From positions 58,349-122,348 of the forward strand of contig JAFLEI010000016.1 of the NCBI GenBank assembly GCA_017301975.1: a DNA stretch of 64,000 nt. Reading direction: 5' to 3'. Under the pieces are notes generated by a model. It ran no database searches and had not been told where the DNA came from. It saw only the letters and a list, made by a program, of their open reading frames with translations. Made by a program: the position numbers and the translations under genes. The DNA is from Verrucomicrobiota bacterium. Lineage in GTDB: Bacteria; Verrucomicrobiota; Verrucomicrobiia; Verrucomicrobiales; Verrucomicrobiaceae. Within the stretch, counting starts at the first letter, position 1; each line of letters starts with the position of its first letter. This document shows, in pieces, positions 24,836-43,736 of the stretch.

Positions 24836-25025
24836 GGCGAAAAGGGGGAAAGAACAGGGGCGGCGAGAATAGACAGTGCCGGTGGGAGTGCAAGGGCTCG
24901 CAGCGCGGATGGGTGAACTATCAAGGTCTGTGAATAGTTCGGAGAACGGTGGCTCTCTTACAATCAACTGAATTGAGGAGCGCCCAGATGGTCGCTTGTT
25001 CACAGCTTTGAAAATCTGCTCATAT

Positions 25026-28000
25026 ATGAAACGCGTAAATGCAAGCTTTCAACTGAGGGGGCGGCGTATCAGGCCCGGCCTTAGGGGTTTGTGTGTCCTG
25101 CTTCTGCTGGGTGTCGGGAATCTCGTAAAAGCGGATAGCGTCAGCCATGCCGAGGCGGATGCCCTGATGGCCGAGGCCGCACGGCTTGCGCCTGCTGCGG
25201 AGGCGGTGGTGATGAGCATCGGCGCTGTTTCCCCGGCGGAATACGTCACGAAGGGAAACTGGAGCGCTGTCATCCCCTGGACGCCGCACATTCCTACATC
25301 GGCCGCCATGCTGCCGGATGGCCGATTGCTGACGTTTGCGTCCAATCAGCGCACCACCTTTCCAGACGGGCCGCAGTTTACCTACGCAGCCGTGTGGGAT
25401 CCGGCCACGGGACTCTTTACCGAGATCAACAACGGGCGGCATGACATGTTCTGCGGCGGGCTTTCGTTTTTGCAGGATGGCCGGCTGCTGGTGAATGGTG
25501 GCAACGGCATCAATGGCACGACGGCGTTTGCCAGCTTGTTTGACTGGCGCACGAATGAGTGGGTGCCCGCACAAACGATGGCGGATGGCCGCTGGTACAA
25601 TACGAGCATCGCTTTGCCCAACGGCGAGGTGCTCACCGCAGGCGGCAACGGCGGCGCGAATGGCAACGGCACCATCGAGCAATGGAATGCCAGCTCCGGC
25701 TGGCGGCGCATGAGCGGCATTTCATGGCAAACGGTGGCGAATCCACCCATCGCGAATGCGATTGAAACGAACTGGCATCCCTTCTTCCTCGTGGCCCCGG
25801 ATGGCCGTGTGGCGCACTTCGGCCCGCATCAGGCGCTGAACTGGATCACCGCCAGCGGCACCGGCGCGATGACTGCGGCAGGAGTCAGCATTCCCGGCAC
25901 GCATTATCCGAAGCAGGGCGCATGGGCCATGTATGCACCGGGCAAGGTGGTGGTGGCTGGTGGATTGACGGCCATTGATGACGGGGTGGTGGTGAACAAA
26001 GCCTTCACCGTGGATCTCAATGGCGCCACACCCGTGGTGGCCCCCACCGCGCCGATGGCGAATGCGCGCTCCTTTTCAAACTCCGTCATGCTGCCAAACG
26101 GCGAAGTGATGGTGGTGGGTGGCAACACCTCCGGGCAGTTCTTCAGTGACCTGGGCGCCGTGTTCACTCCGGAAATCTGGAATCCCACGACGGGGCAATG
26201 GCGTGGTGTGGCGGACATGTCTGTGCCGCGCAATTACCATTCACTCGCGATGCTGCTGCCCGATGGCCGCGTGTGGTCGGGCGGCGGCGGCTTGTCGGGC
26301 GATGCGCTGACGGATCATCAGGATGCACAGGTTTTCACACCGCCGCAGTTGTTCAATGTGGACGGCACACCCGCTGTGCGTCCCGTCATTACGGCAGCAC
26401 CTGATCGCATCGGTCCCGCATCCATCTTCACCGTGAACGCCAGCAACGGCGTACAGTACTTCAGTGCCGTCAGCATGTCTGCGCAGACGCATTCGGTGGA
26501 CACCGGGCTGCGCCATGTGCGCTTCACGCATACGAACCCATCACCAGGCGTGTATGCGGTCACAGCACCCCCGAGCATCAATGTGCTCACTCCGGGCTAT
26601 TGGATGATGTTTGCGGTGGATGCGAACGGCGTGTGGTCCGTGTCGCGCATCATTCAGGTCACGAACTCCACGCTGCCGGTGGTGACGAATCCCGGCCAGC
26701 AGAGCGTGACGCAAAACAGCGTGGTCTCGCTGCCCATCAGCGCCAGCGCCACGGGTGGTACGCTGAGCTATACCGCCAGCGGATTGCCCACGGGACTCGC
26801 CATCGATGCCAGCACCGGCTTGATCTCCGGCTCCGTGACCGCCACACCGGGAACCTACCGCAGCACCATTCTGGTGAGCGCCGCAGGGCAGGTGGCTTCC
26901 GTTTCCTTCAACTGGATCGTGCTGCTGCCCAATCTCGGCAGCGGCCAGATCATGCGTGAGTACTGGACGAACATCAACGGCGCCACGGTGGCCAGCCTGA
27001 CCGGCAACACCGTCTTTCCTGCGAATCCGAATGGCCGCGATCTGCAGCCGTCCTTTGATTCACCTCAAAACTGGGATGACAGCACCGGCCAGCGACTGCG
27101 CGGCTTTCTCTACGTGCCTGTCACCGGCCAGTATCAGTTCTTCATCTCCAGCGATGATGAATCGAGTCTGAAGCTGAGCACCGATGCGAATCCCGCCAAC
27201 GCCGTGGAGATCGCCAGCCAGCCCGGCTACACACCACCTCAAACCTGGACGTGGTATCCGCAGCAGACCTCCGCTCTGATCACCCTGCAGGCCGGCCAAC
27301 GCTACTACATCGAAGCCTTGATGAAGGATGGTACGGGGGACGATCACCTCTCCGTCGGCTGGAAGAAACCGGGAGACGCAGCGGTCTCCATCATCGCGGG
27401 CACCTATCTCTCGCCTTATCTCCCCATCGAAAATCCGGTGGTCGCTTGGAACTTCGATGAAGCGAGCTGGAACGGCACAGCGGGCGAAGTGAAATCCACC
27501 GCCTCAGGTTTGGTGGCCATCAATGGCACGGCAAGTGGCGGAGCGAACACGACGAGCGACAATCCCGCGCTCAGCGGCAATCCTGGCACAGGCAGCAGCG
27601 CGTTGTTCAATGGCACCACTCAAAGCGTTGTGATGCCTTACAGTGCATCGCTCAATCCGAACGACTTCACCATCGCCGCCTGGGTGCGCAGTGATGCGGC
27701 TCTGGGCACAGCGCGCTGCGTCCTCACTTCGCGGGATGAATCCACCGCCACCAAGAAAGGCTACGGCCTGTGGGTGACTACGGATGGTTTTTGGCAGCTT
27801 CGCACGGGCGCGGATGCATCGGCATTGAAAGGCGGCGCCGTCACCGTGGGGCAGTGGACGCATGTGGCGGCCACCTTCCGCACGACGACTGCTGTCGGTT
27901 CATTATTGACTGGCGTGCGCCGCCTTTACATCAATGGCATTCTCGTCAACGAAGACACCGGCACCTACGTGCCAAACGCTTCCAAACCCTTCATCGTGGG

Positions 28001-31000
28001 CGCAGCCGACAGCCCCGGCACGGCCTTCTTTGCAGGTGCGGTGGATGAAGTCACGCTGCATCAGGCCCCCTTGTCCCAGCCCGACATCCTTGCGCTGCGC
28101 GATCTGCGCCACGCCACCAGTATCGTGCCGCAGAATCTCTCGCCACAGATCACAAACCCGGGTGCGCAAGCTTCGCTCATCGGCGCGGTGGTGTCCTTGC
28201 CCGTCACGGCGAATGATCCAGAGAACGATCCCATCACCTTCAGCGCCACGGGGTTGCCCACCGGACTTTCGATCTCGCCGGGTTCCGGAGTCATCTCGGG
28301 TTCTGTGACGGTGGCTGGCACGTTTAATGCCACCGTTATGGCCAGCGATGGCATCAGCGCACCTGCCACCGCCGCCTTCGCCTGGAACGTCTCCGCAGGG
28401 CTCACGCTGCAGCCACTGGCCGCCGCACCGAAAGCCACAGGCTCTGCGCTCACCTTCACCGCGCAATCCGCGAACGGCATCAATACGCGCTACAAATGGA
28501 ACTTTGGCGATGGCACGCCTGAGACCGCATGGCTCACGACCACGAGCATCGCGCACACCTACGCCGGACCGGGCCGCTATCTGGTGACTCTCACCGCCAC
28601 CGATGACACCGGCATCACGATCACCAGTACCTTCTATCAGGCGGTGTATGCCGCACTCACCACACGCAAGCCCGCCGCCTCCAGCAGCATCGTCTATGAG
28701 CATCCAGCCACCGGCAATGACCGCGTCTGGTGTGTGAATCCGGACAACAACAGCGTCACCGCCTTTGATGTGGTGACGCGTGCACGCTATGCCGAGATCA
28801 CCGTGGGCACCGCTCCACGCAGCCTGGCGCTGGCACCGGACGGCAGGCTGTGGGTGACGAATGTGGAGACGGGAACGATCAGCATCATCAACACCACGAC
28901 TCGTGCAGTCGCCGCCACGGTGACGCTTGCCTATGGATCACGTCCGTTCGGCATCGTCTTTGATCCTGCGGGCACGGCCGCATGGGTGACTCTGGAAAGC
29001 TCTGGGCGCGTGCTGAAGCTGAACCCCAGCACCGGAGCCCAACTCGCTTCGATCGATGCCGGCGGCCCTGTGCGGCATCTCTCCATTTCCGCCGACAGCG
29101 CACGCGTGTATGCCTCACGCTTCATCACGCCACGCGTGGCCGGTGAAAACACCGCCACACCGATGCTCACGGGCGCAGGTGGTCAGGTGGTCGTCATCGG
29201 CACGGTGGCGCTTGCAGTGGAACGCACGATTTTGCTCAATCCCAGCACCGCTGCGGACACCTCCACTTCCGCACGTGGTCTGCCAAACTATCTTGGTGCT
29301 GCCGTCATCTCCCCCGACGGTCTCTCCGCCTGGGTGCCTTCAAAGCAGGACAATATCCAGCGTGGCATGCTGCGCGATGGCCAGCCTTTGAACCATGAAA
29401 ACAGCGTGCGTGCCATCGTCTCGCGCCTTGATCTCACTGCGCAGACGGAGCACCTGCCTTCACGCGTGGACATCGACAACGCGGGCATGCCCAGCGCCGC
29501 AGCGTTTGATCCGTATGGCATCTACGTCTTCACCGCGCTCGAAGCCAGCCGCGAGGTCGCGATTCTCGATGCGTGGTCACATCAAGAAATCACCCGCTTT
29601 CCCGCAGGCCGCGCACCGCAGGGCGTCGTCACCTCGCCGGATGGCAGCACGCTGTATGTGCAGAACTTCATGGATCGCACGATCACCGTGCACGATGTCA
29701 GTGGCATCACTCAGGGCGGCAACATCGCGCCAGTAACCACGGCCACGCTCAATGCCGTCACCACGGAAAAACTCACCGCCCAGGTGCTGAAGGGGAAACA
29801 GCTCTTCTACGATGCGCAGGACCCGCGCCTCGCGCTGCAGCAGTACATCAGCTGCGCCGTCTGCCACAACGATGCCGGACACGATGGCCGCGTGTGGGAT
29901 CTCACCGGCTTCGGTGAAGGCCTGCGCAACACCATCACGCTGAAAGGCCACGCCACTCACGGCATGCTGCACTGGACCGGCAACTTCGATGAAGTGCAGG
30001 ATTTCGAAGGGCAGATCCGTGCCCTGGCCGGCGGCACCGGACTCATGACAGACACGCAGCTCAACACCGGCACGCGCAACCAGCCGCTCGGCGATGCGAA
30101 GGCGGGAGTGAGCGCCGATCTCGATGCGCTGGCCGCGTATGTAAAATCCCTCACCGTCAACGGCAACAGCCCGAGCCGCACCAGCAGCGGCGCACTGACC
30201 ACGGCAGCCACAGCGGGGCAACAGGTCTTCCGCTCGCAAAACTGCGCCTCCTGCCACAGCGGGGTGAACTTCACCAACAGCGCGCTCAATGTCTTTGCCA
30301 ATATCGGCACCATCAAACCCGCCAGCGGCAAACGCCTCGGCGCGGCGCTCACCGGTCTGGATGTGCCCACGCTGCGCGGGAGCTGGGCCACGGGGCCGTA
30401 TTTGCACGATGGCTCTGCGGCCACGCTTTCCGACGCCATCACCGCGCACAGCGGCGTGACGCTGACGGCCACGGACTTGTCCAACCTCGCTGCGTTTGTC
30501 GCCAGCATTGACGATGCCCCCACCACGGCACCTTTGCCATTCACCGTCGCACTCACCACCGCCGCCACGAATGTGACCACCTCATTCAACGTCACGGTGG
30601 CCTTCAGTTCCTCGGCCTCAGGTTTCACGCTCAGCGATGTCGTCGTCACGAATGGCGTTGCCTCCACCTTCAGCGGCAGCGGCGCGAGTTATACCTTCAG
30701 GGTCACCCCCACCGCTGCAGGTTTGGTCACCGTCAGTGTTCCAGCCAGTGCGGCCACAGACAGCACGAGCCTGGGCAACTCCGTCTCCAATCTGCTCAGC
30801 GTGACTTATACGGACACCACGCCGCCGACAGTCGCGCTCACCACTCCGGCCACCACCGTTGCCACGCCCTTTGTCGTCACCGCCACCTTCAGTGAAAACG
30901 TCACCGGCCTGCTCGCTGCCGAATTCGCCGTCACCAATGGCAGCGTCACCGCCTTGTCATCCGCTGGTATGGTGTGGTCTGCCACCGTCACACCCACCGC

Positions 31001-34000
31001 TGCAGGAGCCGTGACTGTGAGGCTTCCCGCAGGCATGGCGCAGGATGCCTCGGGCAATCCGAACACGATTTCCAACTTGCTGACGGTCACCTACGCTCCG
31101 GTCATCGTGGGGCAGACCGTGAGAATCCAGGCGGAGGATTTTGACGAAGGCGGGGAAGGGGTGGCCTATCACGATGCTGAAACCATCAACATCGGCGAGG
31201 TTGTTTCCGGCCTGCATTACCGCACCACCGGAGTCGACATCGAACCTTCCAAAGACACGGATGGCACGCCCTCCATCGGCTGGATCACGCCTGGCGAATG
31301 GCTGCGCTACACCACCATTCTCCCATCAGGGAGCTACAACTTCAGCGTGCGCGTGGCCACATCCTATGCAGGTCCGGTTCCGGTCCGCGTGCTGATCAAC
31401 GGCACTCTCGCCACGACGATCAATGTCACCGATACGGGGGGCTTTTATTCCTGGAAAACCTTCTCCGCCACAGGACTCACCCTGCCTGCGTCTGCCGTCG
31501 TTCGCATCGAGTTTCCAAACGGCAATCTCAACTTCAACTGGATGGAGTTCGTCAACACCAGCAGCCCGCCCGACACCACGCCACCAGCGGTCACACTCGC
31601 CACGGGTTCCGCCAGTGTGTCTGCGCCATTCACCGTGAGCGCCGCCTTCAGTGAAGCCGTCACCGGAGTCGCGTTGACTGATTTCACAGTCACCAATGGC
31701 GTGGCTTCAGCGTTGAGCGGCAGTGGTGCAACCTACAGCGTCACCGTCACACCCACAGCCAATGGAGCTGTGACCGTGGCCATGCCCGCGGGTGCTGCTG
31801 CAGACGCCGCCAACAATGCGAGCCTCGCGTCAAACACCCTGAGCGTGACCTACACCGCGCCCGTGCCTGCGCCTACGATTCAGCTCAGCACTGCCTCGTC
31901 GAATGTAACAGGTCCCTTCACGGTGAACGCAGTCTTCAGTCAATCCGTCACCGGCGTGGCTTTGAATGATTTCATCATCACCAATGGGGCGGCCTCAGCT
32001 CTCAGCGGCAGCGGCGCCACCTACAGCATTCTTGTCACACCCACGGCGGCTGGAGCCGTCACCGTCAGTGTGCCCGCCAATGCTGCCACCAACGCCACGG
32101 GCGGAGCCAACACGGCTTCGAATCTGCTCACCGCCACTTACACACCTCTGGACACCACGCCGCCTTCAGTCGCGCTAACAACTCCGGCCAGCAGCGTCAC
32201 CGCGCCGTTTGTGGTCACGGCCACTTTCAGTGAATCCGTCACCGGAGTCGCCTTGAATGACTTCACGCTCACCAATGGCGTTGCTTCCGCTTTGAGCGGC
32301 AGCGGCACGACCTACAGTGTCACCATCACACCCGCAGCCAATGGCGCTGTGACCGTGGCACTGCCTGTCGGCGCGGCCTTTGACGCCGCCAGCAATGCGA
32401 GCCTGGCTTCCAACACCCTCAGCGTGACCTACACCGCGCCCCTGCCTGCGCCCACGGTGTTGCTCAGCACCGCCTCGTCCAATGTGACGGGTGCCTTCAC
32501 GGTCAATGCCGTTTTCAGTCAATCCGTCACCGGCGTCGCATTGAATGATTTCACCATCACCAATGGTGCGGCCTCCGCACTGAGCGGCAGCGGTGCCACC
32601 TACAGCATTCTGGTCACTCCTGCGGCGGCTGGAGCCGTCACTGTCAGAGTGCCTGCCAATGCGGCCACCAACGCCACGGGCGGAGCCAACACGGCTTCGA
32701 ATCTGCTCACCACCACTTATACGCCTCTGGACACCACGCCGCCTTCAGTCGCGCTGACCACTCCGGTCAGCAGCGTCACCGGGCCGTTTGTCGTCAATGC
32801 CACGTTCAGCGAGAGCGTCACTGGTCTGCTCGCTTCCGAGTTCACCGTTACCAACGGCACAGTCACTGCCTTGTCCTCCGCCGGGGCTGCATGGGCAGCC
32901 ACGGTCACGCCCACGGCAGCGGGCAATGTCACCGTCAGAATCCCCGCAGGCGTGGCGCAGGATGCCGCTGGCAATCCGAACACAGTGTCCAATCTCATCA
33001 CTGTGAGCTACACACCTGTGGTCAACACCAACGGCCTCACCGGAGACTACTACATCGGTAAAAACTTCGAGCAGTTCAGCTTCACGCGCATGGAGTCCAC
33101 GGTCAATTACACCTGGGGCACCGGCAGTCCAGATCCACGCATTCCTGCCGATGGCTACAGCGTGCGCTGGCATGGATACCTCATTCCTCGCTTCACCCGG
33201 ACCTACACCATCATCCCTGTCACCGATGACGGCGTGCGTCTCTGGGTCAATGGCCAGCAGGTCGTCAATGATTGGAATAATCACGGCGACACCTGGAACA
33301 ACGGCGTCATCGCTCTGCAGGCCGGCGTGGCCGTCCCTGTCGTCATGGAGTACTACGAAAGCACTGGCGGCGCCACCGCCCGGCTGCTCTGGGAATGCCC
33401 CGGCCAGACGCGCGAGGTGATCCCGCAAAGCCAGTGGCTCGTCAATGCGCCTGCGGCTCCGGCGGCCTCGCCGAACACCATCGTGCTTGCCTCCATCATT
33501 CCCGGCACCATCGGTCTCCCTAACAACCTCGCCACGACCAACAGCGATGAAGACAGCGCTTCGGACCTTCTTGAAGTCGCGCTCGGCACCGCGCTCACCA
33601 GCGGCATCACCCGCCCCGGTGAAGGCTTGCAGTTGGTCACGCGCGGCAACAGCAGCGTCGATGCCACCCTGCTGCGCCCGTCAGGTCAGGGCACCTTCAC
33701 CTTCAGGCTCGAAAGCAGTGGCGATTTGATCAACTGGTCCCCGCTGGTGGCGGCACCGGCAGTCTTCGCTGAAGGCAATGGATGGGAGCGGGTGACGTGG
33801 CCGGATCTCCAGTCTCTCCCCGGGCAGAGCATTGAGCGTGGCATCATCCGTCTGCGCATCACTCAAACCAACGGCGGCAGCGCCACCAGTTTGCCGTTGG
33901 GCTGGCAGCAGACCACGCTCAATTCGGGCACCCAGACCTATGGCCTCAATCTCAACCATGAGGCGCTCTTCACCGGTTCGGTCAGCAGCGCCACCGCCGC

Positions 34001-34835
34001 CAGCGTCACGCTCAGCGAGCAGGCGTCCGTGGCCTCCGCCATGGATCCCGCGCAGCATTACTATCTTGAAATCATCAGCGGTCCTCAGGCCGGGCATCGC
34101 CTGGATCTGCAGAGCATCACCGGCGTCGCGTGCCTCGTGGCGGATGACTCCCTCCATACCACGCTCCCGGCTTCCGCAGTGGCCGGCTTGTCCGGCGCGC
34201 GTGTGATCCTGCGCCCGCACCGCACGCTGGGCGAGATTTTTAATCCCGCATTCTTTCAGGGTTCCTCCACTGCCACGGGCGCAGATCAGATCTTGTTTCA
34301 CACCGCATCGGATTACATCACTTACTGGCTCTATGAGCTTGGAGGCACCCGCAACTGGGTCTTGAACGGAGGCACCGCGGCCAGCATGAATGACACCCTC
34401 ATTCCACCTGGCACAGGCGTGATGCTTCAAATCGCCAGCGCCAGCCCCTCCGCATTGCTCAGCACCGGCAGTGTGCGCACCACTCCCTTCGCCCGCCCGC
34501 TGCAGGCTGGCTACAATCTCTTCGCCAATCCCTGGCCGCTCGACGCCACGCCTGCCCAGGCCGGGATGATCTCTTCCGCCTTTGTTGCCAGCACTTCGAT
34601 TTCCGCTTCCTCTCAATTGCAGCTTTGGAAAGGTGATGCCACGGGGGGGCTGAGCGGATATCTGGCCCACTGGCTCTTGCAGAGGTCAGGGCAGCCCGTT
34701 CCCGTCTGGATCTCTGCGAGCTCTGCCTCCATCATTTCTCAGAACAATGTCCCGCTGCTGCGCGCGGGTCGCGCCACCTTCATCAAAATGCCGCCTGCGG
34801 GCAGCCCGGTTGTATGGATCATTCCTCCGCCGTGA
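25026..34835 (+). CDS. Giant secreted multidomain protein (3,269 aa) combining a copper-radical oxidase, a beta-propeller, a di-haem cytochrome c peroxidase, lectin-like modules and Ig-like repeats
   Basis: ATG 25026 gives the signal peptide MKRVNASFQLRGRRIRPGLRGLCVLLLLGVGNLVKA. Approximate domain map in nt: 25250-26670 galactose/glyoxal-oxidase-like kelch propeller + DUF1929 (HDMFCGG, RWYNTS, NYHSLAMLLPDGRVWSGGGG, THSVD). 26680-26930 He_PIG/cadherin-like Ig. 26940-27420 PA14-like. 27430-28100 LamG/ConA-like. 28130-28400 He_PIG. 28400-28650 PKD (WNFGDG). 28660-29760 YVTN/YncE-type beta-propeller. 29770-30480 di-haem CCP/MauG-like (CAVCH 29853-29867, CASCH 30243-30257, VPTLRGSWATGPYLHDGS). 30520-31100 two Ig-like units. 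31100-31560 CBM6-like. 31560-33010 five Ig-like units. 33030-33440 PA14 (GLTGDYY...RLLWE). 33440-34832 unassigned C-terminal region. Confidence 0.9.
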   Translation: MKRVNASFQLRGRRIRPGLRGLCVLLLLGVGNLVKADSVSHAEADALMAEAARLAPAAEAVVMSIGAVSPAEYVTKGNWSAVIPWTPHIPTSAAMLPDGRLLTFASNQRTTFPDGPQFTYAAVWDPATGLFTEINNGRHDMFCGGLSFLQDGRLLVNGGNGINGTTAFASLFDWRTNEWVPAQTMADGRWYNTSIALPNGEVLTAGGNGGANGNGTIEQWNASSGWRRMSGISWQTVANPPIANAIETNWHPFFLVAPDGRVAHFGPHQALNWITASGTGAMTAAGVSIPGTHYPKQGAWAMYAPGKVVVAGGLTAIDDGVVVNKAFTVDLNGATPVVAPTAPMANARSFSNSVMLPNGEVMVVGGNTSGQFFSDLGAVFTPEIWNPTTGQWRGVADMSVPRNYHSLAMLLPDGRVWSGGGGLSGDALTDHQDAQVFTPPQLFNVDGTPAVRPVITAAPDRIGPASIFTVNASNGVQYFSAVSMSAQTHSVDTGLRHVRFTHTNPSPGVYAVTAPPSINVLTPGYWMMFAVDANGVWSVSRIIQVTNSTLPVVTNPGQQSVTQNSVVSLPISASATGGTLSYTASGLPTGLAIDASTGLISGSVTATPGTYRSTILVSAAGQVASVSFNWIVLLPNLGSGQIMREYWTNINGATVASLTGNTVFPANPNGRDLQPSFDSPQNWDDSTGQRLRGFLYVPVTGQYQFFISSDDESSLKLSTDANPANAVEIASQPGYTPPQTWTWYPQQTSALITLQAGQRYYIEALMKDGTGDDHLSVGWKKPGDAAVSIIAGTYLSPYLPIENPVVAWNFDEASWNGTAGEVKSTASGLVAINGTASGGANTTSDNPALSGNPGTGSSALFNGTTQSVVMPYSASLNPNDFTIAAWVRSDAALGTARCVLTSRDESTATKKGYGLWVTTDGFWQLRTGADASALKGGAVTVGQWTHVAATFRTTTAVGSLLTGVRRLYINGILVNEDTGTYVPNASKPFIVGAADSPGTAFFAGAVDEVTLHQAPLSQPDILALRDLRHATSIVPQNLSPQITNPGAQASLIGAVVSLPVTANDPENDPITFSATGLPTGLSISPGSGVISGSVTVAGTFNATVMASDGISAPATAAFAWNVSAGLTLQPLAAAPKATGSALTFTAQSANGINTRYKWNFGDGTPETAWLTTTSIAHTYAGPGRYLVTLTATDDTGITITSTFYQAVYAALTTRKPAASSSIVYEHPATGNDRVWCVNPDNNSVTAFDVVTRARYAEITVGTAPRSLALAPDGRLWVTNVETGTISIINTTTRAVAATVTLAYGSRPFGIVFDPAGTAAWVTLESSGRVLKLNPSTGAQLASIDAGGPVRHLSISADSARVYASRFITPRVAGENTATPMLTGAGGQVVVIGTVALAVERTILLNPSTAADTSTSARGLPNYLGAAVISPDGLSAWVPSKQDNIQRGMLRDGQPLNHENSVRAIVSRLDLTAQTEHLPSRVDIDNAGMPSAAAFDPYGIYVFTALEASREVAILDAWSHQEITRFPAGRAPQGVVTSPDGSTLYVQNFMDRTITVHDVSGITQGGNIAPVTTATLNAVTTEKLTAQVLKGKQLFYDAQDPRLALQQYISCAVCHNDAGHDGRVWDLTGFGEGLRNTITLKGHATHGMLHWTGNFDEVQDFEGQIRALAGGTGLMTDTQLNTGTRNQPLGDAKAGVSADLDALAAYVKSLTVNGNSPSRTSSGALTTAATAGQQVFRSQNCASCHSGVNFTNSALNVFANIGTIKPASGKRLGAALTGLDVPTLRGSWATGPYLHDGSAATLSDAITAHSGVTLTATDLSNLAAFVASIDDAPTTAPLPFTVALTTAATNVTTSFNVTVAFSSSASGFTLSDVVVTNGVASTFSGSGASYTFRVTPTAAGLVTVSVPASAATDSTSLGNSVSNLLSVTYTDTTPPTVALTTPATTVATPFVVTATFSENVTGLLAAEFAVTNGSVTALSSAGMVWSATVTPTAAGAVTVRLPAGMAQDASGNPNTISNLLTVTYAPVIVGQTVRIQAEDFDEGGEGVAYHDAETINIGEVVSGLHYRTTGVDIEPSKDTDGTPSIGWITPGEWLRYTTILPSGSYNFSVRVATSYAGPVPVRVLINGTLATTINVTDTGGFYSWKTFSATGLTLPASAVVRIEFPNGNLNFNWMEFVNTSSPPDTTPPAVTLATGSASVSAPFTVSAAFSEAVTGVALTDFTVTNGVASALSGSGATYSVTVTPTANGAVTVAMPAGAAADAANNASLASNTLSVTYTAPVPAPTIQLSTASSNVTGPFTVNAVFSQSVTGVALNDFIITNGAASALSGSGATYSILVTPTAAGAVTVSVPANAATNATGGANTASNLLTATYTPLDTTPPSVALTTPASSVTAPFVVTATFSESVTGVALNDFTLTNGVASALSGSGTTYSVTITPAANGAVTVALPVGAAFDAASNASLASNTLSVTYTAPLPAPTVLLSTASSNVTGAFTVNAVFSQSVTGVALNDFTITNGAASALSGSGATYSILVTPAAAGAVTVRVPANAATNATGGANTASNLLTTTYTPLDTTPPSVALTTPVSSVTGPFVVNATFSESVTGLLASEFTVTNGTVTALSSAGAAWAATVTPTAAGNVTVRIPAGVAQDAAGNPNTVSNLITVSYTPVVNTNGLTGDYYIGKNFEQFSFTRMESTVNYTWGTGSPDPRIPADGYSVRWHGYLIPRFTRTYTIIPVTDDGVRLWVNGQQVVNDWNNHGDTWNNGVIALQAGVAVPVVMEYYESTGGATARLLWECPGQTREVIPQSQWLVNAPAAPAASPNTIVLASIIPGTIGLPNNLATTNSDEDSASDLLEVALGTALTSGITRPGEGLQLVTRGNSSVDATLLRPSGQGTFTFRLESSGDLINWSPLVAAPAVFAEGNGWERVTWPDLQSLPGQSIERGIIRLRITQTNGGSATSLPLGWQQTTLNSGTQTYGLNLNHEALFTGSVSSATAASVTLSEQASVASAMDPAQHYYLEIISGPQAGHRLDLQSITGVACLVADDSLHTTLPASAVAGLSGARVILRPHRTLGEIFNPAFFQGSSTATGADQILFHTASDYITYWLYELGGTRNWVLNGGTAASMNDTLIPPGTGVMLQIASASPSALLSTGSVRTTPFARPLQAGYNLFANPWPLDATPAQAGMISSAFVASTSISASSQLQLWKGDATGGLSGYLAHWLLQRSGQPVPVWISASSASIISQNNVPLLRAGRATFIKMPPAGSPVVWIIPPP
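31572..32729 (+). repeat. Intragenic tandem duplication, 2 x 579 bp (two Ig-like units per copy)
   Basis: The landmark gacaccacgcc recurs at 31572, 32151 and 32730, an exact period of 579. B units are about 92% identical at the aa level (VPAPTIQLSTASSNVTGPFTVNAVFSQSVTGVALNDF... vs LPAPTVLLSTASSNVTGAFTVNAVFSQSVTGVALNDF...). A units are about 80% identical. Confidence 0.8.
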
Positions 34836-34868: not shown

Positions 34869-37800
34869 TCACTGACCTGCCGGTGGCCTCCGTATAGATG
34901 CTGATGGCGGTCCGTTGATGCGCGTGTTTTCGCGAATGAGGCGAATGCGTTTGAAGAGTGGCTCCGCTTCAGTGTCGCGCTTCTGGGCTCTGAGCATGGA
35001 GCCCAGACTGGTGAGCCGGGGGATCAGGACCGGGTGATCTGCACCATGGATTTTTTCTTCGATCGCCAAGGCGCGGCGGTAGAGCTGCTCTGCTTCCTGG
35101 CTTGTGTCATCGGTATTGAGTTGAAAGGCCAGCCGTCCCACACTGAGCGCCACTTCTCGATCCATGGGGCCCAGAAGTTTCTCGCGGATGGCCAGCGACC
35201 GGCGGAGCAACGGAGTCGCCTCCCTGCCGTTTTTCGTCGGAGCCAGAGCCAGGGCAACGCGATCAAGGCAGTCGGCGGTTTTCAGACTCTCCGGCCCGTG
35301 TTCTTTTTCGCACAGCTCCAGCGAGCGCCGGTAGAGCGCCGCAGCGTCCTCATCGCGGTGGGTGCGGTGAAGCACAGCCGCGAGGGCGTCCAGGGCTGCG
35401 ATGAGATCGGCCTGCTGAGGGCCGGGATTTTCCTCCGCCAGTTTCACCACGCGCAGCAGCAGTTGCTCCGCCTGGTCGAACAGGGGCGCGGCCTTGGAGT
35501 AGAGCGCCTTGTATTGCAAAAACTCGGCGCAGTCATTGAGCAGGCTGCGTGTGACCTGCGCGTCTCCGGCCTTGTCATGGAACTGACGCTGAAACTCCAG
35601 CACCCTGGACACATGGGGAAGGGCAGGCTCCCAAACCTCCCGCGGCCGCACGCGCTGTGTGGCCGGATCTTTGGCCATAAGGGCATGCATCAGTGAGGTG
35701 GCACGGCCAAGAAACCCAGCTCCACCCTGAAAGCGCAAGACCGCCTGCAACTGCGGAGGACAACTGATGCTCATCGGCTCCTGCGTGATGAGGGCATGGC
35801 GCTCCAGTTCATCGAACGCTGCTTCCACCTGGGTGCCGGGTGATTTCTCATTTGCGGCATCCGCCACAAGCCTCGCCTGCTCGGTGAAAAAAGGCAGGGG
35901 CACAGCTTCCTCGGCGAGCCATGGCAGCAGGGCCATGAGCGCACGCGCCGTGGGTGTCAGGCGCTTCGCTGAAAGCTGCCATGTCGTGACCAAGATCTTG
36001 TCCGGGGAAGTCTCGTTCGGTGCCGTCGTTCCCTTGAGTCCGGCTGACGCCTGATCCCATCGCTTCACATACTCGGTCAATGTCAGTTTTTGCTCCGTGA
36101 TGCATGCCGCCGCCATGGCAAGCGAGAGAGAGTTTCCTTTCATCTGCTGCACCACCTTTGCCGCATCAGGCTCCGTGAACTTGGCCGCAGGGAGATGGGA
36201 CAACTGCTCTTTGAGAAACGCGACAGCCGTGCGCTCATCCCAGATCTTGCCATTCAGTTTCAGGACGGCGCGCAGGCCTTCGTCCTCAGCCTCTTTCTTT
36301 TTCAAGGTCTGCCGCAGGGCCTCGTAACTCTCGAAGGTGTCCTTGGTAAAAGGATGTCCTGCTCCCAGCGTCTTTTTGCTGATCGTGATCGCACGCAGAT
36401 ACAGCTTTTTCGCTTCCTCCGGCCGCTGTTCATTCACGAGGAAACGGGCGTAGTGACTCAAGGTGACAGCCACCTGGACATCTTCCGGACCTTTGCGCTT
36501 TTCCAGAATGGCCAGGGAGCGGAGCAGCAGCTGCTCAGGCTCCTGGTGCTCTCCTGCTTCGACCAGGTAACCTGCCAGCCCTCTGAGATCCACCGCCACC
36601 GTTTCATGCTCTTTTCCCAGATGTTTCTCATGGATCGCCAGTTCACGGCGCAGCAGAGGCACGGCCTCCTCCCAGCGGTTCATGTCACTCAGGCACTGGG
36701 CGATCATGGCCAGTGAGCCGGTGAGGATGCGGGCGTCCATGCCGTAGTTCTTTTCCGCCACATGCAGCTCTTTGCGGTAGGCTGCTTCTGCCTCAGGATA
36801 ACGGCTGAGCGATCTCAGTGCGTTGGCAAGGTTGCTCAAAGGCACGAAAAGACTCTGGTCATCAGGTCCCTTGGTCCGCTCGATGGTGGCGATGCACTTC
36901 TCCAAAACATCCAGGGATCGGATCAGCAGTTGCTTTCGCTCCTTGGAGTCTCCTGCTTCTCCCACAAAATCCGCCAGCCTGGCGAGATCGGCAGCCACGG
37001 TTTCACGATCCTCTCCCAGAAGTTTCTCATGAATCGCCAGCTCACGACGCAGCAGAGGCACGGCCTCCTTCACGCGCTTCAACGTACGCAAAGTCTGGGC
37101 GAGGCGGATCAGAGGATCGACAAGGCTGAGGTCTTCCGGGCCTTTCGTTCTCTCAATGTTTTCGACGATGCGCTGCTGCAAGGGCTCTGCCTCTTGATGC
37201 AGGTTTTGCTCGCTGAGCAGTTGCGCCAGTTGAACACGGCATGCGCAGGTGGTGGCAGCATCGGGCCCCAATGCTTTCTCCTGCACGGGCAAAGATAGGC
37301 GGTAGAGTGGCAGGGCTTCCTTCCTGCGCTGGGTTCGCTCCAGCACCTCCGCCAAAGTGTAGGCCACCTGGGCGGTGAGCGGATGCTTCGGCCCCATGAT
37401 TGCGGTGCGAATTTCCAGCGCGCGGCGGAGCACGGGCTCTGCTTCGGTATTGCGCGCTTGGGAGAGCAGCAGACCCGCGATGATCGCGTGGCAGGTGGCA
37501 AGGTCGCCATGCTCGGCGCCGACGGCCTCCTCGTGAATCTGAAGCGCCTGCTGGTAGAGCAGTATGTTGCCACGACCTGTCAGAATGATTTCCCGCAGGT
37601 CTTGCGCTTTGTTGAGCTTGGAACTGACCGCAAGATGCCTGAGTCCTGAGAGACTTTCATGAAGCTTCAGCAGTTCGACGTACTCGACAAACGCGGAGTG
37701 AGATTGGTGCATGCTCAACAGCAGCTCCGCTTTGCTTCCCAGAAAGGTGGCCGCTTCCAGGGAGGCTGCTCCAGCCGGGCGCTGTTCAAGGCATGTCAGC

Positions 37801-38138
37801 AGCCGCTCATAGAGCTCCAGCGCCTCTTTCTCCCGGCCTGTTTGCCGCAGCAGGTCGGCGAGATTGTTCAGACTCGATTCAAGCTCGGCAGAAGTCACGC
37901 CTCCGGCTTTCTCCCGAATCGCCAGCGCTAGCCGGTAGAGCGCCTCGGCCTCCTGAAAGCTGTCTGCCGCTTCGAGGTGGCTCGCCAGTTCGCTGAGGCG
38001 TGCCGCCACCTCGGGTGCGGCCTTTCCATGTTCCTGCTCAGCCTTCGCCAATGCCTCACGCAGCCGCGACATGCCGGCTGATTCCGCCGCATGCGCAGCG
38101 CAGAGTGCACTGAGGAGAAAAAAGACGATGAATCTCAC
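34869..38138 (-). CDS. Signal-peptide TPR protein (1,089 aa) with an internal P-loop-less NB-ARC-like (ARC/winged-helix) remnant
   Basis: MRFIVFFLLSALCAAHAAES is the signal. It is followed by about 600 aa of TPR_12-like repeats, including an internal duplication (AVPLLRRELAIHEKLLGEDRETVAADLARLADFVGEAG / AVPLLRRELAIHEKHLGKEHETVAVDLRGLAGYLVEAG). Next comes LKLNGKIWDERTAVAFLKEQL...GNSLSLAMAAACI...LTEYVKRW...ILVTTWQLSAKRL...LMALLPWLAEEAVPLPFF...AFDELERHALI, which is like the GLPL and winged-helix parts of NB-ARC. About 250 aa of TPR follow. No Walker A seen. Confidence 0.75.
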   Translation of the reverse strand: MRFIVFFLLSALCAAHAAESAGMSRLREALAKAEQEHGKAAPEVAARLSELASHLEAADSFQEAEALYRLALAIREKAGGVTSAELESSLNNLADLLRQTGREKEALELYERLLTCLEQRPAGAASLEAATFLGSKAELLLSMHQSHSAFVEYVELLKLHESLSGLRHLAVSSKLNKAQDLREIILTGRGNILLYQQALQIHEEAVGAEHGDLATCHAIIAGLLLSQARNTEAEPVLRRALEIRTAIMGPKHPLTAQVAYTLAEVLERTQRRKEALPLYRLSLPVQEKALGPDAATTCACRVQLAQLLSEQNLHQEAEPLQQRIVENIERTKGPEDLSLVDPLIRLAQTLRTLKRVKEAVPLLRRELAIHEKLLGEDRETVAADLARLADFVGEAGDSKERKQLLIRSLDVLEKCIATIERTKGPDDQSLFVPLSNLANALRSLSRYPEAEAAYRKELHVAEKNYGMDARILTGSLAMIAQCLSDMNRWEEAVPLLRRELAIHEKHLGKEHETVAVDLRGLAGYLVEAGEHQEPEQLLLRSLAILEKRKGPEDVQVAVTLSHYARFLVNEQRPEEAKKLYLRAITISKKTLGAGHPFTKDTFESYEALRQTLKKKEAEDEGLRAVLKLNGKIWDERTAVAFLKEQLSHLPAAKFTEPDAAKVVQQMKGNSLSLAMAAACITEQKLTLTEYVKRWDQASAGLKGTTAPNETSPDKILVTTWQLSAKRLTPTARALMALLPWLAEEAVPLPFFTEQARLVADAANEKSPGTQVEAAFDELERHALITQEPMSISCPPQLQAVLRFQGGAGFLGRATSLMHALMAKDPATQRVRPREVWEPALPHVSRVLEFQRQFHDKAGDAQVTRSLLNDCAEFLQYKALYSKAAPLFDQAEQLLLRVVKLAEENPGPQQADLIAALDALAAVLHRTHRDEDAAALYRRSLELCEKEHGPESLKTADCLDRVALALAPTKNGREATPLLRRSLAIREKLLGPMDREVALSVGRLAFQLNTDDTSQEAEQLYRRALAIEEKIHGADHPVLIPRLTSLGSMLRAQKRDTEAEPLFKRIRLIRENTRINGPPSASIRRPPAGQ

Positions 38139-38475: not shown

Positions 38476-39333
38476 ATGCAGCTCACGCTCCATCGTACGC
38501 TATTGATTCACACCCTGCTCTTGGTTGGCATCGGTGGATATCTGGTGTCGCATCGTCGAGTTCCAGACAAGACGGTTCCTGTCAAACACGTGCGCATGCC
38601 CACCCAGGCGGAGCTTCTGGAGATCGAGCGTTTGGGAGCAGAACTGAGAGGACAAAGCGCCGAGCACTTGGGAGGCCTTAGCAGAGATCCTGAGGATTTG
38701 GATCGGCGCTACCGTCATTTGATCGATCTTCAGTTGGGCTATATGCTGCCGGAACATCCAGAGGTCGTAAACAACCGCAAAGATCTTGCTCGTGTATTGA
38801 AGCGCAAAGGTGCGTATGCGGAAGCGGCGGAGCAGTATCGTATTTTGTTGAAAGTCTATCAGCGTGTCATGGGGACGGATGATCCAGATACATTGAGCTG
38901 TCAGAAAGATTTGAAGGAGGCGATGTGGCATGTGACCCAGGCTGAGGAGGCTGAGCAGAGACTTCGTGAAGAGTACAAGCGGCAGTCGGTTGCCCGAGGA
39001 AAAGAGGATGGCCGGGTATTGATGATTCAGGCGAAGATTGCGGATCAACTGATGAATCAATCGAAGTGCTCTGAGGCTGAGGGGGAATTGCGTGCTATGG
39101 TGAATATTCTGCTCAAGAAGCAGGAAAACACTTTTCCGCCAGTTCTCTTGTACATGGTCAAATTGATCATGTGTCTCGAAGTCCAGGGCAAACGGAAAGA
39201 GGCTTTGGAATTTGTCCAGGAGATGGAGTGGCTGCAGGCCGATACTCCTGGGCTAGAGCTTTTACGGACGGACGGTGCGACCAGGCTGCGTGCAGAAATC
39301 AATTCCGGACGGCTCAAGCCCCGCATGAAGTAA
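38476..39333 (+). CDS. Membrane-anchored TPR-like protein
   Basis: 285 aa. N-terminal TM LLIHTLLLVGIGGYLV, then TPR-like helical repeats (KDLARVLKRKGAYAEAAEQYRILLKVYQRVMGTDDPDTLSCQKDL). GC is visibly lower than the surroundings. Confidence 0.6.
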   Translation: MQLTLHRTLLIHTLLLVGIGGYLVSHRRVPDKTVPVKHVRMPTQAELLEIERLGAELRGQSAEHLGGLSRDPEDLDRRYRHLIDLQLGYMLPEHPEVVNNRKDLARVLKRKGAYAEAAEQYRILLKVYQRVMGTDDPDTLSCQKDLKEAMWHVTQAEEAEQRLREEYKRQSVARGKEDGRVLMIQAKIADQLMNQSKCSEAEGELRAMVNILLKKQENTFPPVLLYMVKLIMCLEVQGKRKEALEFVQEMEWLQADTPGLELLRTDGATRLRAEINSGRLKPRMK

Positions 39334-39366: not shown

Positions 39367-40695
39367 TCACTCCTTCAGCGCAGGAGGCCGGTGGCTCTGG
39401 ATTTGCGCCTTAAAGTCTCCGAGGCTGTTCCAATGCGTGGGCGCATTGAGATCGACTTCCGCGATGGCCAGCGTGCCAAACACATCCGCCTTTGCCAGCA
39501 CATCGCCATAGTGATCAAAGATGCCTGAGATCATCCACTGGTTCTTGGTGGCGTCCGTGTAGGTGCTGCTGACGATGTAGACGTGATTTTCGCAAGCGCG
39601 TGCAGCGGCGAGCATGGGATTGCAGCCCCACACCGGCCAGGCGATGACTTCGGCTCCCTTGATCGTGAGCGCGCGGGCGACTTCAGGGAAGAAGCCGTCG
39701 TAGCAGACCATCATGCCCACTTTGCCAAAGCGCGTGTCGAAAACCGGGTAGTCATGGCCGGGCGTGATGCCAGACTCGATCTCGCCACGCGGCAGGGTCA
39801 CCTTCCGATACTTGCCCACCAGCGTGCCATCCGGGCCCAGCAGCGCAGAGGTATTGTACAGCGTCTTGCCCTCACGCTCCACGAGGCCGGCGACGATGTA
39901 GAGATTGTGCTCCTTCGCCAGCTTGCCGAAGTACTCCGTGCTGGGCCCGGGCACCGTCTCGGCACAATCGGCCATCGTCTTGCCTGTGCCGTAGTAGGTG
40001 AGCGTCTCGCCGAGCACCACAAGATCAGCCTTCTGCCTGGCGGCCTCGGCAATGAGCGGCGCATACTGCGGCGGCTTGTCAGCAGGGTTCTTACCGTCTT
40101 TGGGCTGAAGGTGAATCGTGGCCAGTTTGACCTTGCGTGGCGCAGGGGCTGGCACGGCGGCGAGTGAGACATCACTCCACTCCACCCGAGCATTCGCCGC
40201 CCATTGCAGGTAGAGCTCGATCTTCGCCTGCCTGGCCTTTACCGGCGCACGCAGGGTGCTTCCGCAATGAATCCACTGGTTCGCTTCGCCCTCAGGCACA
40301 TGCGGGTACTCAGGCTCGGCGCGTGGGATGCTGCCCTTCGCGTAGCCTTGCTTCGCAGGTTCCTCCCAGCTCACGGGCTTGCCGTTCTCATCCTGCCACA
40401 AAATGCGGGCATACACGCTGCGACGCGCCGTGGGCATGGCGCTGGCTTTTTTCCATCCGCTGAACTGGTAGTGCTGACCGCCTTCCACCGGCAGCGTGCG
40501 CGTCCAGCAGCCGATCCATTGCTCACCCTCGCCCGTCTCCAAAATGAGCGCGCCTTTGCCCGCATGGCCGCCGTCCTGGCTTTGCACTGCGGAGGGCTTT
40601 GCTTCATCGCGTGGAGACCAAAGCGACCAGCCTTCGGAGACAGCCGCATGGGAAGCGGCGGCGAGGAGACAGAGGACAAGAGTCTGAAGTTTCAT
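39367..40695 (-). CDS. Secreted carbon-nitrogen hydrolase (nitrilase superfamily) with N-terminal beta-sandwich-like domain
   Basis: ATG 40695 gives the signal MKLQTLVLCLLAAASHAAV. CN-hydrolase triad context: DLVVLGETL (Glu), GKYRKVTLP (Lys), MMVCYDGFFPE (Cys). Confidence 0.85.
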   Translation of the reverse strand: MKLQTLVLCLLAAASHAAVSEGWSLWSPRDEAKPSAVQSQDGGHAGKGALILETGEGEQWIGCWTRTLPVEGGQHYQFSGWKKASAMPTARRSVYARILWQDENGKPVSWEEPAKQGYAKGSIPRAEPEYPHVPEGEANQWIHCGSTLRAPVKARQAKIELYLQWAANARVEWSDVSLAAVPAPAPRKVKLATIHLQPKDGKNPADKPPQYAPLIAEAARQKADLVVLGETLTYYGTGKTMADCAETVPGPSTEYFGKLAKEHNLYIVAGLVEREGKTLYNTSALLGPDGTLVGKYRKVTLPRGEIESGITPGHDYPVFDTRFGKVGMMVCYDGFFPEVARALTIKGAEVIAWPVWGCNPMLAAARACENHVYIVSSTYTDATKNQWMISGIFDHYGDVLAKADVFGTLAIAEVDLNAPTHWNSLGDFKAQIQSHRPPALKE

Positions 40696-40778
40696 GCGGG
40701 AGGGTACGGTGGCTGGTGCCACAGTCTTGTGCAGCACCAGCACGCTCCCTCTGAATATTTGACCCGGCTTCGAGCCAG

Positions 40779-43532: not shown

Positions 43533-43736
43533 GATCAGGGTGAAGACTGGTGAAAGGGTCAGGGCGATGATACCTGATAGAACGTGCGACCGGAGAGATC
43601 ATTGTATTTAAATTTTGGGCTTTTTGGCGGACGGGCGTGGGATCGGTGTCGCGGTAGCCGCCATGTTGTTTTCACATTTAATGGTAAGAATCCGGAAAGC
43701 CCCTCGTTTTCGCGGCTGGTAGCCCCCCTTTCCCCT

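Follow-up and report, generated by a model that had tools for sequence, protein, structure and literature searches.

The window analysed here, a 64,000-nucleotide stretch of contig JAFLEI010000016.1 from a bacterium of the Verrucomicrobiota, carries at positions 25026 to 34835 a gene whose predicted product joins a copper-radical oxidase (CRO) and a c-type di-haem domain of the CCP/MauG superfamily (CCP, cytochrome c peroxidase) in one exported polypeptide. The open reading frame (ORF) is uninterrupted from 24996 to 34835 on the plus strand, with the ATG at 25026 giving a protein of 3,269 amino acids (aa). The N-terminus, MKRVNASFQLRGRRIRPGLRGLCVLLLLGVGNLVKA followed by DS after the putative cleavage site, combines a positive n-region, a hydrophobic core and an AxA-like site (read by eye), pointing to a Sec-type export signal, and no lipobox was seen in this N-terminus when the translation was read in the same way. 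The gene and its parts are as follows.

25026..34835 (+), whole gene, stop codon included: unbroken ORF for a multidomain protein predicted to be exported
25026..25130 (+), predicted Sec-type signal peptide, aa 1-35, with predicted cleavage after VKA (translation read by eye)
25248..26378 (+), predicted seven-bladed Kelch propeller of the copper-radical oxidase, aa ~75-451 (Pfam Glyoxal_oxid_N and Kelch; PDB; model)
26379..26660 (+), GO-like E-set domain, aa 452-545, bearing the fourth copper ligand His489 at 26490 (Pfam PF09118, 55.3 bits)
26676..26921 (+), He_PIG immunoglobulin (Ig)-like domain 1, aa 551-632 (Pfam PF05345)
27084..27392 (+), PA14/GLEYA lectin-like domain 1, aa ~687-789 (PA14 27.4 bits, GLEYA 28.4 bits, sub-sequence)
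27609..28088 (+), Laminin_G_3 (concanavalin-like) domain, aa 862-1021 (Pfam PF13385, 88.9 bits)
28143..28394 (+), He_PIG Ig-like domain 2, aa 1040-1123 (Pfam PF05345, 50.6 bits, sub-sequence)
28425..28631 (+), PKD domain, aa 1134-1202 (Pfam PF00801, PF18911)
28668..29765 (+), seven-bladed YVTN beta-propeller, aa ~1215-1580 (TIGR02276; PDB 1l0q; model)
29763..30515 (+), CCP/MauG-superfamily di-haem c domain, aa 1580-1830 (Pfam CCP_MauG, Cytochrom_C, RoxA-like_Cyt-c)
30537..31088 (+), Big_12 Ig-like units 1-2 (Pfam PF19078)
31221..31553 (+), CBM6/CBM35-like carbohydrate-binding module, aa 2066-2176 (CBM_35_2 52.6 bits, CBM_6 47.1 bits)
31572..33029 (+), Big_12 Ig-like units 3-7 (Pfam, seven stretches in total; 4/5 re-scanned singly)
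33030..33431 (+), PA14 domain 2, aa 2669-2802 (Pfam PF07691, best stretch)
33513..34832 (+), C-terminal region of ~440 aa, aa 2830-3269 (conserved among verrucomicrobial homologues)

Both catalytic domains reach the Pfam gathering score, with Glyoxal_oxid_N at 38.7 bits (cut-off 37.5) and CCP_MauG at 32.7 bits (cut-off 25.6), and the propeller is matched by NCBIfam TIGR02276 (YVTN repeat). The first-pass annotation of this DNA, made by reading the letters, had described an exported polypeptide with two PA14, a LamG, a CBM6-like, a PKD and seven Ig-like units on one ORF; all these modules were recovered, the seven Ig-like units as Big_12 and two He_PIG domains besides, with the profiles Glyoxal_oxid_N, CCP_MauG, PA14, CBM_6, Laminin_G_3, PKD and He_PIG all finding matches. 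A split ORF or other assembly artefact in the repeat region, considered as an explanation of the giant frame, is rejected in view of the open frame itself, the divergence of the repeats and the recurrence of the architecture in many independent assemblies. As the Ig-like repeats share merely 60-79% DNA identity and Tandem Repeats Finder (TRF) detects no tandem array, repeat collapse or mis-joining is unlikely.

The residues proposed for the copper site, together with both CxxCH motifs, were found by script at the codons originally given: Cys143 in HDMFC (25452-25454), Tyr191 in RWYNTS (25596-25598), Tyr404-His405 in NYHS (26235-26240) and His489 in THSVD (26490-26492), with CAVCH (aa 1610) at 29853-29867 and CASCH (aa 1740) at 30243-30257. 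The oxidase region (aa ~52-546) matches galactose oxidases of the PDB with E-values of 2e-96 (9g8h/9g43) and 3e-65 (Fusarium 1gof), and its HDMFC, R-x-Y, Y-H-S and T-H-(S/T)-V motifs are aligned with the galactose oxidase cofactor residues. Tyr191, Tyr404, His405 and His489 fall on the copper-ligand positions (Tyr272, Tyr495, His496 and His581 of FgGalOx) in alignments to 9g8h and 6ryv, Cys143 falls on the thioether Cys (Cys228) in HDMFC of galactose oxidases, and THSVD of the E-set domain lines up with their THTVN/THSVN. All five cofactor residues are invariant among 119 close and 38 distant relatives. A model of the oxidase domain built on 42 family members has a mean predicted local distance difference test score (pLDDT) of 90.7, with Foldseek superposing it on 9g43 at a root-mean-square deviation (rmsd) of 1.9 Å and 39% identity, on 1gof with a TM of 0.76 (TMq), and on the Colletotrichum alcohol oxidase (AlcOx) 5c92 with a TMt of 0.92, GlxA and glyoxal oxidase scoring lower. 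The seven-bladed Kelch propeller and C-terminal E-set of AA5 oxidases are both present, as judged from the model and PF09118. The assignment of these residues to copper-site positions is thus borne out by the PDB alignments, the fold match (TM ~0.76) and the invariance in 119 + 38 relatives, and the domain is, to judge from its sequence, a copper-radical oxidase complete in its metal and radical site.

With the AA5_2 oxidases 1GOF and 9G43/9G8H the window protein shares the Kelch propeller and the E-set domain whose finger gives the last His, as well as the thioether Cys, equatorial Tyr, axial Tyr-His pair and last His themselves, at 39% identity to the Pseudoarthrobacter siccitolerans enzyme (9G43), 32% to that of Fusarium graminearum (1GOF) and an rmsd of ~2 Å. 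In contrast to these enzymes, it has no N-terminal CBM32 and is fused to ~2,700 further residues that include the haem enzyme. The first-pass annotation held that every residue context of Fusarium galactose oxidase was kept, which is true of the five cofactor residues but not of two second-shell positions found in the strict AA5_2 galactose 6-oxidases: the loop bearing the stacking Trp290 reads GGNGGANG against GGSWSGG, leaving the aromatic residue absent, and the position of the galactose-binding Arg330 is Glu247, with the family consensus likewise lacking Trp290 and Arg330. With Glu in place of the galactose-binding Arg, the substrate is probably not free D-galactose, and the domain is probably not D-galactose-specific.

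Downstream of the YVTN propeller, the di-haem domain carries the two CxxCH motifs and, further on, VPTLRG (aa 1780) and PYLHDGS (aa 1791). By sequence alone the region matches di-haem peroxidases and hydrazine synthase gamma in the PDB at E-values of 2e-16 to 1e-10 (CcpA 3o5c 2e-16, HZS-gamma, the gamma subunit of hydrazine synthase (HZS), 9e-14), and a profile made from 22 phylogenetically spread members matches HZS-gamma 5c2v_C (E 2.7e-21), Shewanella CcpA (3.8e-21), MbnH 6e1c (4e-12) and MauG (3e-9), the MauG alignment covering just 35 residues of the domain. The inter-haem Trp1650 is aligned with the Trp of FWDGR (Trp94 in Pseudomonas aeruginosa CCP, Trp93 in MauG), and Asn1635, at the Ca site, with RNSPT, the Asn being kept in 37/39 members and the Trp in all. 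With the CCPs (CcpA 3O5C, 1EB7, 1IQC), MauG, MbnH and BthA the domain therefore has in common the two equally spaced CxxCH motifs, the inter-haem Trp, the Ca-site Asn (LRNT) and the PTLR...PY(F/L)HDG motif, whereas it differs from them in that a propeller always precedes it. A further difference lies at the C-terminal haem, where His1808 stands at the sixth-ligand (Met) position in alignments to 3o5c and 1iqc; this ligand is Met in bacterial CCPs (bCCPs) and Tyr in MauG and BthA. His1808 is also aligned with the His of DMHGR in HZS-gamma, the second haem of which is bis-His (PMC12758564). Both CxxCH motifs, Trp1650 and His1808 are invariant in the 119 close and 38 distant members. The earlier description of a CCP/MauG-like module behind a YVTN propeller is accordingly upheld by Pfam and the profiles as regards the superfamily, but not as regards a canonical CCP, from which the domain is set apart in its alignments by His for the Met ligand and by failure to keep the distal residues His71, Gln104 and Glu114; an invariant acidic stretch, NFDEVQDFE, occupies the position of those distal residues.

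The YVTN propeller matches PDB 1l0q (E 8e-28), and its model (pLDDT >90) is placed by Foldseek on archaeal 1l0q and, second best, on HZS-beta 5c2v_B (TMt 0.76, rmsd 3.1 Å). One propeller loop, PNYLGAAxISPDGxxAWVPSKQDNIxRG, is strikingly invariant. HZS beta/gamma (5C2V; fused as beta-gamma in Scalindua) has a comparable arrangement of a YVTN-type seven-bladed propeller followed by a CCP-like di-haem domain, with agreement in order and folds (the haem part of our model having a pLDDT of 45-60), and HZS-gamma has a C-terminal haem of the bis-His type, as predicted here from His1808. The propeller is no mere spacer; together with the di-haem domain it makes up one unit, which resembles hydrazine synthase beta-gamma. 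This likeness also raises the idea that the haems perform HZS-like chemistry on a small molecule other than peroxide, such as a nitrogen oxide or hydroxylamine, with the Kelch/Cu domain in the place of HZS alpha. It is favoured by the rank of HZS-gamma as top profile match, the superposition on HZS-beta, the NCBIfam hydrazine_BC match (7.6e-19), the DGRVWD motif common to the di-haem domain and HZS-gamma, and the reported prevalence of homologues of the fused beta-gamma subunit in environmental bacteria (PMC12758564). However, the hydrazine_BC match scores 67 bits where the family cut-off demands 1,250, and so falls far short; the fusion family keeps the inter-haem Trp of CCP/MauG enzymes where HZS-gamma has His144 (PMC12758564); no HZS-alpha-like gene was found in the window or in the family loci; and the fused partner is a complete copper oxidase, predicted to produce peroxide, in hosts that are aerobic heterotrophs and not anammox bacteria. 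We therefore regard HZS-like chemistry as very unlikely.

The window protein is not a one-off but a member of a large, generically annotated family present in hundreds of bacterial species of several phyla. A protein search with residues 1-1850 gave 1,230 matches, and in the best 120 of these the order is oxidase, variable lectin/Ig stretch, propeller and di-haem domain, with a truncated entry as the sole exception. The listed matches come from Prosthecobacter, Brevifollis, Chthoniobacteraceae and Chloroflexota, with a 96%-identical orthologue in metagenome-assembled genomes of Prosthecobacter, and are annotated in such terms as 'PA14 domain-containing' or 'YVTN family beta-propeller'. Using an alignment of the propeller-di-haem unit, a scan that took one genome for each GTDB species found at least 598 matching stretches, from which 80 loci were fetched and joined by 4 obtained otherwise. 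The oxidase lies upstream in the same open frame in 80 of these 84 loci, the other 4 ending too early, so that a CRO is genetically linked to the haem peroxidase-type module within one ORF in 80/80 judgeable loci. These loci belong to Verrucomicrobia, Acidobacteriota, Chloroflexota, Planctomycetota, Steroidobacteraceae, Methylophilaceae and many Burkholderiales (Rhizobacter, Methylibium, Variovorax, Ideonella and Rubrivivax), the same-frame fusion thus spanning at least 6 phylum- or order-level groups. In a library of representatives at 50% identity, 1,494 clusters match at E<=1e-30, and 120 of the best 150 carry both the oxidase and the propeller-di-haem unit; most of the remaining 30 start within He_PIG or PKD and are N-terminally cut fragments. 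Two to four clusters seem to be true propeller-di-haem proteins that stand alone, lacking the oxidase domain and equipped with a signal peptide or lipobox themselves, among them the lipoprotein P0228 (681 aa) and P0251 (934 aa).

Across this family both predicted catalytic centres are shown by alignment to be intact and under strong purifying selection, on one polypeptide and in a fixed order. Since all 80 judgeable loci share one frame and 120 of the best 150 clusters carry both parts, a joint working of the two catalytic parts, as would be expected of a functional coupling, is strongly backed by evolution. The 'accessory' propeller-di-haem half is the more constrained of the two, with 55-59% identity across phyla against 27-48% for the oxidase domain (28668-30575 and 25203-26675 of the window compared with loci L038-L084). 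Such unequal conservation fits a constant small-molecule partner, for example H2O2, and a variable organic substrate.

The size of the window protein also invites the view that it is mainly an adhesin or surface-layer protein, with enzyme-like domains that are degenerate or structural. More than half of it consists of lectin-like and Ig-like modules and the C-terminal region without a family, and YVTN and PKD domains also occur together in an archaeal S-layer protein (1l0q). Against this, no catalytic residue of either centre varies between phyla, copper-chaperone genes are found as neighbours, and the minimal members (~1,450 aa, as in Variovorax at L075) are hardly more than catalytic core, that of Steroidobacter agaridevorans (1,462 aa; L045 7913-12301) consisting of oxidase, He_PIG, PKD, propeller, di-haem domain and PA14. 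A purely structural role is, on this evidence, extremely improbable. Many Burkholderiales members carry the lipobox LAACGGG and so appear to be envelope lipoproteins. The C-terminal ~440 aa of the window protein, for which no Pfam or NCBIfam match was found, are shared with verrucomicrobial homologues only, at whose C-terminus they show 32-88% identity, and are missing from proteobacterial ones; a role in anchoring or secretion specific to this lineage is possible. Tandem gene copies occur within one locus at L057 (3443-7276 and 8042-11875) and L050 (9-3956 and 6077-11863), and single genomes can hold two or more paralogues differing in their lectin modules (PA14/LamG, DUF1349, legume-lectin, F5/8-C).

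The neighbours of the gene in the window are a divergent gene for a topoisomerase IV/gyrase A-like protein, which also adjoins a 75%-identical orthologue, and a convergent gene for a 1,089-aa TPR protein. Elsewhere in the family, genes of copper trafficking recur. In ~19 verrucomicrobial loci, paralogous fusion genes are directly preceded, on the same strand, by a gene for an MbnP-MbnH (CCP_MauG) fusion, which overlaps them by 4 bp at L001 (8247-10004) and L003 (8118-10004) and is found further at L013, L014, L016, L021, L022, L024-L027, L029, L030, L032, L034, L037, L070 and L074. Neither the window nor the orthologue group of the window gene has this MbnP-MbnH gene, a tblastn of MbnPH against the window matching the gene's own haem domain only. 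A Sco1/SenC gene lies immediately downstream, occasionally upstream, in ~18-20 proteobacterial or planctomycete loci, for example at L045 (12291-12887, overlapping the fusion stop codon) and L077 (12651-13235). Five Burkholderiales loci have a conserved ORF of ~150 aa without a Pfam family between the fusion gene and Sco (L069 12341-12835; L072 12268-12735; L084 13189-13617), which could encode an unrecognised copper chaperone or accessory protein.

The upstream MbnP-MbnH gene bears on a second role for the haems, that of a MauG- or MbnH-like maturase in cis, in which an oxidant of the bis-Fe(IV) type, formed from H2O2 or O2, would carry out a one-off modification by long-range hole transfer. 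This modification could concern the Cys-Tyr cofactor, or else give rise to a new cofactor derived from a residue of the YVTN propeller or of the oxidase, and the haems would not be partners in turnover. Membership of the CCP_MauG superfamily, with the MbnH and MauG matches given above, the conserved inter-haem Trp, a sixth ligand other than Met as in MauG (Tyr), the translational coupling of MbnP-MbnH upstream of many paralogues, the invariant propeller loop, and the requirement of GlxA maturation for DtpA (PMC4736821) are all consistent with such a role. In contrast, the Cys-Tyr cross-link of galactose oxidase is established to form autocatalytically with Cu and O2 (reviewed in PMC11611005), the bis-Fe(IV) state is stabilised by His/Tyr ligation in MauG and BthA where the ligand here is His, and a haem domain of 270 residues with a propeller of 365 residues, held at 55-59% identity, would be costly for a single event. 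No mau genes were found in the window. Taken together, a maturase role appears unlikely.

All-against-all clustering of the neighbours in 64 loci returned as recurrent only MbnPH, Sco, their opposite-strand shadows, the syntenic topoisomerase gene and the ~150-aa ORF, with no recurrent small cytochrome or cupredoxin gene, as might encode an electron donor, among these loci. This result bears on the suggestion that the haems are a built-in electron-transfer module which does not handle the peroxide made by the oxidase and provides a 'dehydrogenase' or respiratory link instead. In one version the haems shuttle electrons from the Cu(I)-tyrosine site to periplasmic acceptors, bypassing O2; in another they take electrons from periplasmic cytochromes and reduce ambient H2O2 in the manner of a classical bCCP, independently of the oxidase. 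The C-terminal haem is indeed cytochrome-c-like (Pfam Cytochrom_C, Cytochrome_CBB3), the inter-haem Trp is kept, canonical bCCPs score close to HZS-gamma in the profile search, and acquired cytochrome domains are described as built-in mediators of other oxidoreductases (PMC6472588). Nevertheless, the bis-His ligation predicted from His1808 would imply a low potential, ill-suited to electrons from a high-potential cytochrome or cupredoxin (judged from His/Met versus His/His haems), a recurrent donor gene is missing from the 64 loci, a detoxifying CCP working independently need not be fused in 80/80 judgeable loci, and a physiological acceptor other than O2 is known for no copper-radical oxidase. 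We consider either version of electron transfer rather improbable.

Pairings of a CRO with a haem peroxidase in trans offer the closest parallels to the fusion. The GlxA/DtpA/Sco system of Streptomyces lividans (PMC4736821) comprises a bacterial CRO, a haem peroxidase that consumes its H2O2, and a dependence on Sco; GlxA maturation needs both Sco and DtpA, and DtpA forms compound I from H2O2 made by GlxA. Sco genes likewise flank proteobacterial members of the fusion family. The Streptomyces system differs in being made up of three separate proteins, with DtpA a DyP-type b-haem enzyme exported by the twin-arginine (Tat) route and GlxA membrane-anchored and paired with a cellulose-synthase-like protein, whereas here the oxidase and a c-type di-haem domain are predicted to form one Sec-exported polypeptide. 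GlxA is also distant in sequence, PDB 4unm matching aa 311-542 only (E 6e-27). In Colletotrichum and Magnaporthe, AlcOx and a haem peroxidase are a natural co-secreted pair (PMC9770985, PMC12951238), the CRO being activated by the tandem peroxidase through direct electron transfer at a specific protein-protein contact (see also PMC11611005). In these eukaryotic hosts the two genes are adjacent, head-to-head and separate, and the peroxidase, a class II b-haem enzyme, is unrelated to the di-haem domain. More generally, CROs are activated by peroxidases including horseradish peroxidase (HRP), lignin peroxidase (for glyoxal oxidase) and the tandem fungal enzyme (reviewed in PMC11611005).

The identity of the domains is established, since sequence profiles, PDB searches and fold comparison agree, and the conserved core of the family is, as far as alignments and profiles tell, a copper-radical oxidase, Ig-like linkers, and a YVTN propeller with a di-haem c domain. 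From this core, and by analogy with the pairings in trans, we propose, at a probability of roughly 0.5, a bifunctional redox enzyme of the envelope or extracellular space in which the haem module would use the H2O2 of the oxidase in cis and keep the Cys-Tyr radical oxidised. Following Sec export, the two haems would be attached by the cytochrome c maturation (Ccm) system, copper would be inserted and the Cys143-Tyr191 cross-link formed. The oxidase domain would then oxidise a primary alcohol (or aldehyde), carried by a glycan or by some other substrate in the envelope or the environment, and reduce O2 to H2O2, the variable PA14, LamG and CBM modules holding the substrate close. The adjacent propeller-di-haem unit would take this H2O2 at a five-coordinate N-terminal haem, with the resulting high-valent haem discharged via Trp1650 and the bis-His C-terminal haem. 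Peroxide would thereby be removed at source, a one-electron oxidant would keep or restore the Cu(II)-tyrosyl radical, and the remaining oxidising equivalents would pass to another reductant or a second substrate. In the known systems these tasks fall to separate proteins: DtpA serves Streptomyces GlxA, the tandem peroxidase serves fungal AlcOx, and a combination of HRP and catalase is used in vitro. The altered stacking loop is of interest here, as W290 variants (W290H data) need a much stronger oxidant for radical formation (PMC11611005); with the Trp290 stack lost, a higher radical-forming potential is expected, for which a tethered strong oxidant would be advantageous. We infer, in keeping with the first-pass annotation, that the protein may be glycan-anchored and may either self-detoxify or couple its two reactions.

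A number of observations weigh against this proposal. One H2O2 is made per turnover and radical re-activation is only occasional, so that most of the oxidising equivalents of the haems must go to another reductant or substrate. The best profile match of the di-haem domain is HZS-gamma, and hydrazine synthase gamma reduces NO, not H2O2. Where P. aeruginosa CCP has its distal His71, Gln104 and Glu114, the domain shows Gly, Asp or a gap (1eb7 and 3o5c, in a low-confidence stretch of the alignments), and the haem lobes were modelled at low confidence (pLDDT 45-60). In the window protein ~1,000 residues of lectin/Ig domains separate the two active-site domains, and no Sco, MbnP, cytochrome or glycan-metabolism gene is found among the window neighbours, Sco and MbnPH thus not being adjacent. 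Finally, DtpA gave GlxA no rate boost over HRP, and a stable complex of the two was not seen (PMC4736821).

A more tightly integrated arrangement, which we consider speculative and unlikely, is a single catalytic chamber in which the Cu-radical Kelch domain, the YVTN propeller and the di-haem domain come together as do HZS alpha, beta and gamma. H2O2 would be tunnelled to the N-terminal haem through a passage gated by the invariant propeller loop, would never be released, and would there power a further oxidation, whose target would be the aldehyde product or else a C-H or phenolic group of the bound polymer. Overall, O2 would be reduced to two H2O while a glycan or other polymer was oxidised twice in succession. 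The protein would then stand for a new class, a peroxide-tight 'oxidase-peroxygenase', and would represent the ancestral context of a beta-gamma module later recruited by anammox bacteria.

Full-text literature searches found no publication describing the fusion, in line with the earlier remark that no characterised example was known; a sequence-network paper on bCCP/MauG proteins (PMC6405878) does not mention it, and the word 'galactose' is absent from a paper on HZS evolution (PMC12758564). Already known are the superfamilies of the parts (AA5 CROs, and CCP/MauG proteins with an HZS-beta-gamma-like propeller) and the pairing of CRO, peroxidase and copper chaperone in trans. The novelty lies in the covalent fusion, its wide phylogenetic spread and its c-type di-haem partner, which belongs to an unstudied subtype; the sequences themselves are public.

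Further genes of the window were noted in passing. No tRNA genes were found in the 64 kb by tRNA scan, and in L010 the orthologous giant gene has downstream of it a CN_hydrolase gene comparable to that listed below.

34869-38138 (-), the convergent 1,089-aa protein, almost all TPR_12/TPR_10 (NPHP3-like) repeats
38476-39333 (+), a smaller TPR protein, adjoining the 1,089-aa TPR gene
39367-40782 (-), a 471-aa carbon-nitrogen hydrolase, downstream of the Met-zincin gene and overlapping it by 4 bp
40779-43532 (-), a 917-aa DUF5117 + DUF4953 Met-zincin
43584-45899 (+), a PSCyt2/PSD1 (DUF1549/DUF1553) gene
45921-47216 (+), a DUF1501 gene, forming with the preceding one a pair characteristic of Planctomycetes and Verrucomicrobia, the 'planctomycete cytochrome-like' cassette

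Copper-radical oxidases are prized as biocatalysts, and in practice they need an added peroxidase for activation and catalase for protection. To our knowledge, their natural partners and roles are known in two systems only, the Streptomyces GlxA-DtpA-Sco system and the fungal appressorial AlcOx-peroxidase pair. The fusion described here, conserved across phyla, is the strongest genomic evidence so far for CRO-peroxidase coupling as a general biological principle, and would offer both a self-activating, self-protecting oxidase scaffold for biocatalysis and an experimental handle on intramolecular electron transfer between a Cu-radical site and haem. It also supplies a probable context for a sizeable branch of the CCP/MauG superfamily that is unstudied, the HZS beta-gamma-like proteins 'prevalent in environmental bacteria', and links this branch to copper trafficking through Sco and MbnPH. 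That variable lectin modules surround a constant core suggests a family of enzymes directed at polysaccharides or surfaces, which they would oxidise, in the abundant Verrucomicrobia and Burkholderiales of fresh water and soil.

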